Positions 20,201-21,035 of a DNA stretch of 32,000 bases are shown one piece after another. The position numbers and the translations under genes were made by a program. Within the stretch, counting starts at the first letter, position 1; each line of letters opens with the position of its first letter. This stretch comes from Streptacidiphilus albus JL83 (GTDB lineage Bacteria; Actinomycetota; Actinomycetes; Streptomycetales; Streptomycetaceae): positions 2,768,017 to 2,800,016 of the forward strand of contig NZ_JQML01000001.1 in assembly GCF_000744705.1 (NCBI RefSeq), in the 5' to 3' direction. The notes beneath the pieces were generated by a model that did not search any database, was not told where the DNA came from, and saw nothing but the letters and a program-made list of their open reading frames with translations.

Positions 20201-21035
20201 TGCGGCCGTACGCGACGGTGACCAGCAGGCGGTAACCGCCGGAGTGGGTGATCGAGAGAGGGGTGCCGTTGCGGTCGTAGTCGAGGTCGTAGTGGCGTCC
20301 TGAGCGGTCGCGGACCTGGGTGAGCAGGGCGGTGGCGCCGTCGGGTTGGACGGTGAACTCGCGGGCCAGGCCGCTGGCGCGGTCGGTGAGGGTGTAGAAG
20401 CGCTCCGCGTCGTCGACGGTCAGGTCGCGCCGGACTCCCGCGCTGGCCTGGACGGCCTGTCCGGGGGCGGGGTGGGGATAGGCCTGGGTGCGGCGGTCCG
20501 CGCCGAGGTGGACCACGCCCTGGTCGTCGATCTCCAGCCGTTCGTCGAAGGTGCAGACCCAGCGGCGGCCCATCCAGCGGCCCGCCCGGTAACCGGACTC
20601 GAAGCAGCGGGTGAACAGCAGCGGCAGCGAGCCGGGGAGGGAGGCGTCGGTCTGGTCGATGAACATCCGGCCGGTGGCCATGTCGACGGGCTCGCCGCCG
20701 TCGCAGACCGCGTTCTCGGCGCGTCCGGCGTCCTGCGGGTCGGAGACCTGGTCGCGCCCCGCGCCGGGGCCACTGTCGCCCGTGTCCCCGCCTACCGGAC
20801 CGGGGTCCTCGGGGTGGGGGTCGCCCACGGAGGGTTCTCCGCCGGGGCGTTCGGCGGACTTGGTGAGGTCGTCGACGGTCTTGGCCTCGTTGTCGGCGGC
20901 GTTGTCCGCGACCTGTCCGGCCTTCTCCTCGGTGTCCTTGAGAATGCCGTGGTAGGCGTCGGAGAAGTCCTTCGACAGGCCCTGTTCGGCCTTCTTCGCA
21001 GCATCTTCCAACGCGTGGGCTATCGCCTCGCTCAT
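17202..21035 (-). CDS. Rhs/YD-repeat polymorphic toxin with a variable 133-aa C-terminal tip
   Basis: 1277 aa from the ATG at 21035 ([12 protein letters not shown]...). [17 protein letters not shown] is an N-terminal element typical of Rhs proteins. There are about 27 YD-type repeats ([16 protein letters not shown] and others). The core-end motif is [36 protein letters not shown]...[14 protein letters not shown], followed by an unrelated low-GC tail at 17205-17603. The ORF-track start at 21200 adds an Arg/Pro-rich extension and was rejected. Confidence 0.9.
   Translation of the reverse strand: [1277 protein letters not shown]

Follow-up and report, generated by a model that had tools for sequence, protein, structure and literature searches.

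The 32,000-nucleotide (nt) stretch of the Streptacidiphilus albus JL83 genome analysed here (contig NZ_JQML01000001.1, positions 2,768,017 to 2,800,016), hereafter the window, carries two toxin cassettes on its minus strand, and the two toxins, a deaminase and an Rhs protein, open with a common module of about 60 residues. Genes were called with guidance from the GC content of third codon positions (GC3) and from Pfam and NCBIfam scans. The first cassette, which is intact in the window, consists of a 237-residue protein with WXG100_2/WXG100 domains resembling the CpnT N-terminal domain (4733–5446; hereafter the carrier), a 284-residue toxin of the XOO_2897 deaminase type (3882–4736; Pfam PF14440 at residues 161–255, E = 1.1e-15) whose start overlaps the carrier stop as ATGA, three tandem SUKH-4 immunity paralogues (3232–3792, within 2646–3431 and within 2056–2760; Pfam PF14435, E from 1e-15 to 9e-12) and a fusion of SUKH-4 and deaminase domains (1177–2052). 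As listed mechanically, the SUKH-4 open reading frames (ORFs; 2056–3792) overlap one another, and their true starts lie downstream of those listed. The second cassette consists of a 50-codon ORF (21032–21184), a 1277-residue Rhs polymorphic toxin (17202–21035) and a 131-residue ORF (16834–17229) that overlaps the Rhs stop. In the Rhs toxin the module is followed by a Pro/Gly/Asp-rich linker, DUF6531 (residues 114–186), RHS repeats (RHS_repeat, E = 1.1e-89, 14 stretches), the RHS core (Rhs_assc_core, 71.5 bits) and an Ntox30 toxin domain (residues 1169–1271, E = 1.5e-33). The 131-residue product has no Pfam or NCBIfam match and is a candidate Ntox30 immunity protein by position only.

Residues 1–60 of the deaminase (MSEAIANALKNG...DLTRA; 4557–4736, minus strand) and of the Rhs toxin (ending in DDLTKS; 20856–21035, minus strand) align without gaps, with 20 of the 60 positions identical and E = 3e-5 in pairwise BLASTP. 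This bears out the central claim of the original prediction, which had been made from the sequence of the window alone, that one N-terminal module heads two unrelated toxins. The absence of a Sec or Tat signal from both toxins was also confirmed by a check of hydropathy, motifs and charge: the highest Kyte-Doolittle 15-residue mean is 0.46 in the deaminase and −0.21 in the Rhs N-terminus, neither has an RR motif, and the net charge of residues 1–60 is −6 and −7, respectively. Two further arguments of the prediction proved exact in their facts but weaker as evidence than had been implied. The 19-mer GGCTATCGCCTCGCTCATG over both starts does occur exactly twice in the window, at 4719–4737 and 21018–21036, with 0 copies expected (100 shuffles); on the coding minus strand it reads C-ATG-AGC-GAG-GCG-ATA-GCC, that is, one base and the six codons for MSEAIA, and it adds little beyond common N-terminal residues and common codon choice. 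Likewise, both toxin starts overlap an upstream stop as ATGA, that of the 237-residue carrier ORF at the deaminase and that of the 50-codon ORF at the Rhs gene, but the overlap is weak evidence because ATG AGC, with a second codon that starts with A, gives a +1-frame TGA automatically, and the upstream ORF of the Rhs gene has only 50 codons. The DNA 5′ of the deaminase start has no detectable similarity to that 5′ of the Rhs start.

A codon within the 19-mer recurs in the family. The isoleucine found near position 5 of the module has ATA as its codon, which is usually very rare in such high-GC genomes, in about 10 of the 28 homologues examined; the copies are those of the window (4722–4724 and 21021–23) and those of L006, L009, L015, L017, L019, L022, L023, L027, L028 and L029. 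That it recurs suggests that a codon which is rare or pairs weakly is selected for immediately behind the coupled start.

The module corresponds to no named domain, as the prediction had surmised. Isolated N-termini gave no Pfam or NCBIfam match even at E ≤ 10, and a word-indexed search with a profile of the two window sequences returned essentially no matches. An exhaustive profile search (16 sequences, 60 columns, against 1.84 billion representatives) recovered 122 cluster representatives at E ≤ 1e-3, 39 of them at E ≤ 1e-10, with the consensus MSNxIVKALExGAxKLGKTLxxDAGKAVxxLYxxxGxxLKKVAKNxxExDAKHAxEL. For 114 of the 122, the match starts no later than residue 17; the few matches elsewhere lie in repetitive or low-complexity proteins and in two with over-called starts. 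The seemingly internal module of P0037 (residues 217–276) was rejected as such, because its start was over-called and the reading frame runs through a degraded carrier gene that is out of frame. A search with the full-length deaminase yielded 21 homologues from Streptomyces, Kitasatospora, Streptacidiphilus and metagenomes, and the complete homologues of the two-gene type all align to the same N-terminal segment of about 55–60 residues. Some deaminase modules are nearer to the Rhs module than to the window deaminase module, that of P0018 being 45% identical to the Rhs module; such intermediates link the two modules of the window. The nearest relatives of the Rhs module come from Streptacidiphilus, Kitasatospora and a metagenome-assembled genome (MAG).

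What follows the module is consistently a toxin. In a Pfam scan of the 90 module members of at least 150 residues, the C-terminal parts fell into 22 families, every one of them toxin- or Rhs-related, and so the enrichment at toxin N-termini that the original prediction had implied is borne out by profile search and cargo scan alike. Rhs-related cargo was represented by DUF6531 (20 members), RHS_repeat (14), RHS (8), TEN_YD-shell (7) and DUF4595 (5), and deaminases by XOO_2897 (8), YwqJ (7) and DddA-like (1). There were four members with the NADase TNT; nucleases of the GH-E (3), NucA/NucB (3), Endonuclease_NS_2 (2), WHH (2), Colicin-DNase (2) and AHH (1) families; and ADP-ribosyltransferases of the ART (2), Scabin-like (1) and ADPrib_exo_Tox (1) families. 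Ntox28, Cytotoxic, CdiA_C and CdiA_C_tRNase were found in one member each.

The exchange of cargo behind the module is directly visible in close relatives of the window. Over 5740–4521, which covers upstream DNA, the carrier gene and deaminase codons 1–72, the window and the metagenome contig L031 differ at only 2 positions, whereas from 4520 on identity falls abruptly to about 75% and stays so through the toxin and the SUKH-4 immunity region. The natural recombination junction on the minus strand (4520–4521) thus separates a constant part (carrier, module and linker) from a variable part (toxin and immunity); it lies at deaminase codon 72/73, in the motif KTYF|I, a few residues past the module. 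Because the carriers of L030 and L031 are both 100% identical to that of the window, whereas the deaminase is 99.6% identical in L030 and an 80% variant in L031, closely related strains in nature differ by a swap of toxin and immunity genes. The Rhs toxin is 87% identical to its orthologue in the MAG locus L009 over the shell but 33% identical over the last 84 residues, and by this comparison its C-terminal toxin has evidently been swapped relative to the MAG orthologue. One N-terminus on many unrelated toxins, and a constant/variable junction with the immunity gene travelling along, are the marks of polymorphic toxins, and the proposed interchangeability of cargo holds for both cassettes.

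The carrier belongs to the WXG100 superfamily: it passes the Pfam thresholds for WXG100_2 and WXG100 (PF25547, 36.0 bits against a cut-off of 27; PF06013, 27.8 bits against a cut-off of 27.3), and its AlphaFold2 (AF2) model has helices at residues 25–58 and 63–126. NCBIfam TIGR03930 stayed below its cut-off. Carrier homologues numbered 441 at E ≤ 1e-5; the best 120 of these are nearly all about 240 residues long and at least 50% identical across genera, with several paralogues per genome, and some database sources name the protein 'Outer membrane channel protein CpnT-like N-terminal domain'. Among 104 carriers, the invariant residues include H46, H79, H216 and H223; H216 and H223 lie one heptad apart in the C-terminal helix (HA..M..HAETV) and may form a metal or pH-sensing site.

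In the intact contexts first examined (L001 from Kitasatospora, L002/L003, L004 from Streptacidiphilus and L005, an Rhs), a WXG100_2 gene of 240–243 codons overlaps the start of the module gene by 4 nt, and immunity genes come next; L001 and L004 share with the window the order carrier, deaminase, SUKH-4. A reverse census starting from the carrier covered 66 metagenome loci in which the carrier is complete and 200 nt or more of sequence lie downstream of it. A module-profile match stood directly after the carrier in 55 of them (83%), in 28 cases at an offset of −4; three other census loci, like the genome locus L018, have an overlapping gene with a divergent helical N-terminus, and in 7 of the 66 the carrier stands alone. 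Distances between carriers co-vary with those between modules (Mantel r = 0.77, p = 0.0005, 66 pairs), which fits co-adaptation of the two. The gene before the module, about which the original prediction had called for a census, is therefore nearly always a WXG100_2 carrier of about 240 residues, although the Rhs gene of the window has only a 50-codon relic there. An upstream helical partner, as in complexes of toxins and partners belonging to type VII secretion systems (T7SS), thus exists for the deaminase and across the family, and only as a relic for the window Rhs. Unlike CpnT, carrier and deaminase are not a single polypeptide but two ORFs in different frames with a 4-nt overlap. A single-chain WXG100_2-deaminase, P0019, does exist in Streptomyces; it was considered as a fusion of carrier, module and deaminase and rejected as one, its inter-domain region having no significant match to the module profile, so that it joins only the carrier domain to a toxin. 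Taken as a whole, the module is almost certainly a genuine, toxin-specific N-terminal domain that is genetically coupled to the carrier.

The 50-codon ORF before the Rhs gene is a remnant of a carrier gene. It starts with MAIEL, as carriers do (MAIELP...), and keeps the ATGA junction with the Rhs gene. Its orthologue in the MAG locus L009 matches positions 1–21 of the carrier hidden Markov model (HMM; E = 1.3e-5) and, weakly, positions 204–216, whereas the window ORF itself gives an insignificant match (E of 0.15–0.58). By these comparisons, the relic is best read as a carrier gene after internal deletion of roughly residues 20–203, with upstream region, start and ATGA junction retained. The relics of the window and L009 differ by no insertions or deletions and share 48% protein identity; the ratio of nonsynonymous to synonymous substitution rates (dN/dS) between them is about 1.8, a noisy value over 50 codons, and the peptide does not appear conserved, being at most a leader ORF. 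Compared with the same MAG orthologue, the Rhs module has a dN/dS of 0.17 and the complete Rhs gene one of 0.39. To judge from these ratios, the module is still constrained although the carrier in cis was lost before the lineages of the window and the MAG split. Because a dN/dS of 0.17 in the module accompanies a cis carrier that is a relic with a value of about 1.8, this suggests that a carrier is supplied to the Rhs toxin in trans.

The DNA before the relic ORF is itself conserved: about 90 nt (21185–21275, minus strand), including some 45 nt before the relic ATG, are nearly identical to L009. This is probably a promoter/5′ untranslated region (UTR) inherited from the carrier gene. The segment is conserved though the relic just downstream has diverged, and it may be a promoter, a 5′ UTR or a regulatory element; a scan of the Rhs upstream region for sigma-70 consensus sequences and terminators found nothing. 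At the locus L008, a degraded cassette at 5001–7390 illustrates cassette decay, with a truncated carrier, a 173-codon module gene, a separate Rhs fragment and transposase genes around them.

A genome-locus search with an alignment of the Rhs-subtype module found this subtype at 21 genome loci. Among them, the 4-nt overlap is seen in each of the 4 complete small toxins that have a carrier; of the 15 Rhs genes, 5 have a carrier 14–63 nt upstream and 1 has the relic. Carrier-less module genes beside intact carriers were found in the genomes with more than one sampled locus, that is, in S. neutrinimicus, S. anmyonensis, S. pinicola and the genome of this window, a pattern that would agree with carriers acting in trans.

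Structure prediction (104-sequence alignment) gave an all-helical carrier with a mean confidence score (pLDDT) of 76 and helices at 25–58, 63–126, 130–168, 171–182 and 203–232, the last of them confidently predicted. Foldseek comparison of this model with the PDB returned only generic BAR-like long-helix bundles (E > 0.03), and when the carrier and module profiles were searched against PDB sequences, no significant relatives emerged. In the AF2 model of the deaminase (19 sequences), residues 66–284 have a pLDDT of about 90 and residues 1–65 one of 35–37. Such a low pLDDT would be expected of a segment that folds only with a partner, although the alignment is shallow.

The C-terminus of the carrier offers a possible form for such a partnership. 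The last 40 residues of the carrier match positions 2–37 of Pfam WXG100, below threshold (13.6–20.2 bits when tested alone), and we consider it solid that they form a half-hairpin, one that looks like the first helix of another WXG100 hairpin broken off at its turn. The hairpin turn of the carrier reads Y-Q-G-A-S-Y-E and its C-terminus L-A-G-V-S-F-E-stop; hhalign paired G-V-S-F-E at the gene boundary with G-A-S-Y-E in that turn, a weak match (P = 0.017). When the C-terminal helix of the carrier was joined to the module, full-profile alignments to WXG100, WXG100_2, EspC or DUF6507 were sometimes obtained, all of them sub-threshold. A tentative idea, which we consider rather doubtful, is that of a split secretion domain in which the gene boundary falls at the hairpin turn and the module supplies helix 2, so that a WXG100-type substrate would be complete only on assembly of carrier and cargo. 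If this were true, one conserved carrier could present any cargo, including a carrier-less Rhs encoded elsewhere, and the hydrophobic central hairpin of the carrier might additionally act as a CpnT-like membrane translocator.

We propose that the module is probably a conserved trafficking or docking domain of polymorphic toxins in actinomycetes of the Streptomycetaceae type. The standard cassette would comprise a strongly conserved helical WXG100_2 protein of about 240 residues, a module-headed toxin and one or more immunity genes, and the overlap of the toxin start with the carrier stop ([A/G]TGA) probably leads to joint translation of the two proteins at corresponding levels. The module, which would not fold by itself, most likely attaches to the carrier, probably along the carrier's C-terminal helix, and the composite helical bundle would be recognised by the ESX/type VII machinery. 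Everything past residue 65–72 or so would then be exchangeable cargo, whether a small enzyme or a whole Rhs cage. The Rhs toxin of the window, whose carrier was apparently lost by internal deletion, presumably borrows one encoded elsewhere, for example that at 4733–5446. The link to the T7SS comes from the Pfam WXG100 and WXG100_2 matches of the carrier and from the genes of a mycosin and a WXG100 protein, which lie 2 kb away from the Rhs gene. On this comparative evidence, which supports the interpretation given in the original prediction, we hold it probable that the function of the module is to bind the carrier so that type VII export can take place.

Several observations weigh against this proposal. 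No WXG or YxxxD/E motif can be recognised in the module, and neither solved structures, in the PDB profile search, nor Pfam families are significantly similar to it; as a candidate WXG100 protein it falls short on both counts, with no Pfam match at E ≤ 10 and no W-x-G motif. The co-variation of carrier and module distances would also follow from the simple co-inheritance of adjacent genes. In the helix-2 test, a swapped-order control scored as well as the join of carrier C-helix and module, and the low AF2 confidence for the module comes from an alignment of only 19 sequences. Among the 15 Rhs genes of the genome loci, 9 have no carrier directly upstream, and for 8 of these there is none within 5 kb (at L018, an unrelated carrier lies about 3 kb away); because these 9 have no adjacent carrier and 1 has only a relic, a carrier in cis is not obligatory. 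A folded Rhs cage is, moreover, thought too large for the T7SS channel (discussed in PMC10327511), and none of the T7SS/ESX core genes EccB/C/D/E lies within the window.

Other explanations of the shared N-terminus and its neighbour were considered. The likeness might have been a local accident, in which a short gene conversion or chance codon identity produced the 19-mer and the remaining similarity reflects the composition of acidic helices. The 19-mer covers only 6 codons, identity beyond it is 33%, and the MSEAIA of the Rhs toxin is nearer to the window deaminase than to other Rhs-subtype modules (MSGQIA, MSEIAQ), so that a micro-conversion of the first codons is possible. Set against this are the pairwise E of 3e-5, the membership of both modules in one profile family with 39 matches at E ≤ 1e-10, the intermediates that link the subtypes, such as P0018 with its module 45% identical to that of the Rhs toxin, and regularities of position, cargo and neighbourhood that could not come from composition alone. 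For the module as a whole, an accident is barely credible and is refuted by the profile search, the cargo scan and the carrier census, while a micro-conversion may have touched the first 19 nt. The carrier could alternatively be a co-regulated but separate substrate, the overlap a matter of operon economy, and the module by itself a complete secretion signal for the T7SS ATPase or another route. Many module Rhs genes without an adjacent carrier are intact and constrained, and 7 of the 66 carrier genes stand alone, as this would lead one to expect; yet the 83% adjacency, the dominant 4-nt overlap and the co-divergence exceed what unrelated co-substrates should show, the module is predicted to be unstructured alone, as is typical of a partner-folded segment, and the characterised T7SS toxins of like layout all need helical partners (PMC10801868; 10.64898/2026.08.24.746431). 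We consider this explanation decidedly improbable.

The role of the carrier, too, can be read differently. It may be a membrane-active translocator like the N-terminal channel of CpnT, with the module serving as a delivery tether across the membrane of the producer or the target, not as a secretion signal. The Pfam WXG100_2 match and the CpnT-like channel name in database sources point in this direction, as do the presence of TNT, the toxin domain of CpnT, among the cargoes, the existence of the single-chain P0019, and a conserved Ala/Val-rich hydrophobic hairpin in the carrier (helices 63–126 and 130–168) with a Kyte-Doolittle 19-residue mean of 1.9 near residues 101–125. That hydrophobic stretch is borderline for a transmembrane segment, however, the Foldseek search found generic long-helix bundles and no structural match to a pore, and streptomycetes have no mycomembrane for a CpnT-type channel. 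We regard a mainly translocating carrier as unlikely; the idea is in any case compatible with binding of the module to the carrier for export, since the carrier could do both.

The proposed arrangement resembles several known toxin systems in its logic. In the LXG toxins of the T7SSb of Bacillota, with their Lap1/Lap3/Lap4 (or EsxB/C/D, EsaE) partners (PMC10801868, PMC10653861), a constant helical N-terminal trafficking region is likewise combined with small WXG100-like partners encoded upstream, variable toxins and then immunity genes, and there the partners bind the toxin N-terminus, as the module would bind the carrier here; EsaD with its partners (PMC10653861) follows the same logic. The parts differ: neither the two toxins nor their isolated N-termini match the LXG family (Pfam PF04740), the N-terminal handle has about 60 residues in place of about 200, one partner of about 240 residues stands in place of two or three of about 100, and the host is an actinomycete with a presumed ESX/T7SSa route. 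The comparison with LXG and Lap proteins drawn in the original prediction, as similar logic with different parts, was therefore apt.

For Rhs proteins, the closest parallel is LrhA, a T7SSb Rhs of Listeria. Its helical N-terminus is unannotated and is followed by DUF6531, three helical partners, LxpABC, are encoded upstream, and truncated copies exist that lack N-terminus and partners alike (PMC10327511). LrhA and the Rhs toxin of the window have in common a helical N-terminus without a known domain, DUF6531, an Rhs cage and a C-terminal toxin, as well as upstream helical partners and copies without them, but the N-terminal regions have no detectable similarity, three small partners in Listeria face one large WXG100_2 protein here, and small toxins other than Rhs proteins also begin with the handle described here. 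A genetic link of Rhs toxins to T7SSa as well as T7SSb has been stated (PMC11217815). Within the actinobacteria, EatA of the M. abscessus ESX-4 system has a helical N-terminus that stacks with the co-encoded WXG100-like proteins TapA1 and TapA2 (bioRxiv 10.64898/2026.08.24.746431). It is, similarly, a T7SSa antibacterial toxin with a helical N-terminal domain and WXG100-like partners; it differs in its two small WXG100 partners, its other N-terminal domain and its single known cargo, and no carrier of about 240 residues or polymorphic cargo set has been reported for it.

In CpnT of M. tuberculosis, a WXG100_2-type N-terminal domain and the TNT toxin form one chain (PMC8593097, PMC8092274). By Pfam domain, WXG100_2 is common to the carrier and the CpnT N-terminus, TNT is among the cargoes, and P0019 shows that a CpnT-like one-chain layout exists beside the two-gene layout; in contrast to CpnT, there are here two genes with a 4-nt overlap, a toxin with its own handle of about 60 residues, and no mycomembrane. 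Actinobacterial XOO_2897 deaminases, SUKH immunity proteins and RHS proteins have been assigned to export by 'T7SS (WXG)' (Zhang et al. 2012, PMC3482391; Iyer et al. 2011, PMC3239186), and these proteins agree with the present family in the pairing of an XOO_2897 deaminase with SUKH-4, in RHS and HNH nucleases and in a T7SS route predicted via a WXG domain. The two papers place the WXG domain at the N-terminus of the toxin polypeptide itself, unlike here, and term searches of their texts brought up neither a split two-gene layout nor a separate handle of about 60 residues. In the (incomplete) literature that we searched, no description was found of the 60-residue module, the two-gene layout, PF25547 or Streptomyces T7SS toxins with WXG100-like carriers; module and carrier look like an undescribed variant of the type VII scheme of toxin plus helper.

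The surroundings of the two cassettes deserve brief mention. The window is actinomycete-type high-GC DNA with a GC content of 0.61–0.79, which drops to 0.61–0.65 over both toxin regions (2001–5000 and 16001–18000) against 0.72–0.78 elsewhere. On the minus strand, a mycosin-type subtilase, a T7SS-associated protease, lies 2 kb from the Rhs start (23103–24566; Pfam Peptidase_S8; NCBIfam TIGR03921 at 254 bits, below the cut-off of 278.75), and its adjacency to the Rhs gene is kept in the MAG locus L009. It adjoins the gene of a 477-residue WXG100/PPE-like protein (24595–26028, minus strand; Pfam PPE, WXG100 and T7SS_signal matches), in which a WXG100/PPE-like domain at the N-terminus is followed by a very long low-complexity linker rich in Gly and, after KKKKRK, by a short C-terminal tail; this gene pair is also kept in L009. 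The two genes fit what Zhang et al. 2012 (PMC3482391) describe for actinobacterial Ntox38 proteins, in which a WXG domain and a linker rich in Gly are combined with a tiny C-terminal domain and a subtilisin is encoded next to them. Two M1 aminopeptidase paralogues (Peptidase_M1 and ERAP1_C) are encoded on the plus strand at 11898–15026 and 26653–29250, the first with an N-terminal extension of about 180 residues. The protein encoded after the deaminase cassette at 1177–2052 (minus strand) has no module and joins a SUKH-4 domain (residues 40–176) to an XOO_2897 deaminase domain (residues 185–282); such fusions of about 280–290 residues occupy the same place in Kitasatospora (L001, 7686–8525) and Streptacidiphilus (L004, 7622–8473), and may represent a conserved immunity-toxin fusion or an orphan toxin reservoir.

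In summary, a handle of about 60 residues, for which Pfam has no model, and a carrier of about 240 residues together mark out more than a hundred toxin families, which include Rhs cages, deaminases related to base editors, NADases and nucleases. Streptomycetes, about whose type VII substrates little is known, are major competitors in soil, and the experimental description of ESX-type antibacterial toxins in actinobacteria has only just begun, with EatA of M. abscessus. The signature of module and carrier can be used directly in the search for new toxins and immunity proteins, and the junction near residue 72 is a natural fusion point for tests of cargo export. In addition, carrier and module offer a simple two-protein system for investigating how the T7SS recognises large cargo, and the carrier-less but constrained Rhs genes constitute a natural experiment on carriers acting in trans.

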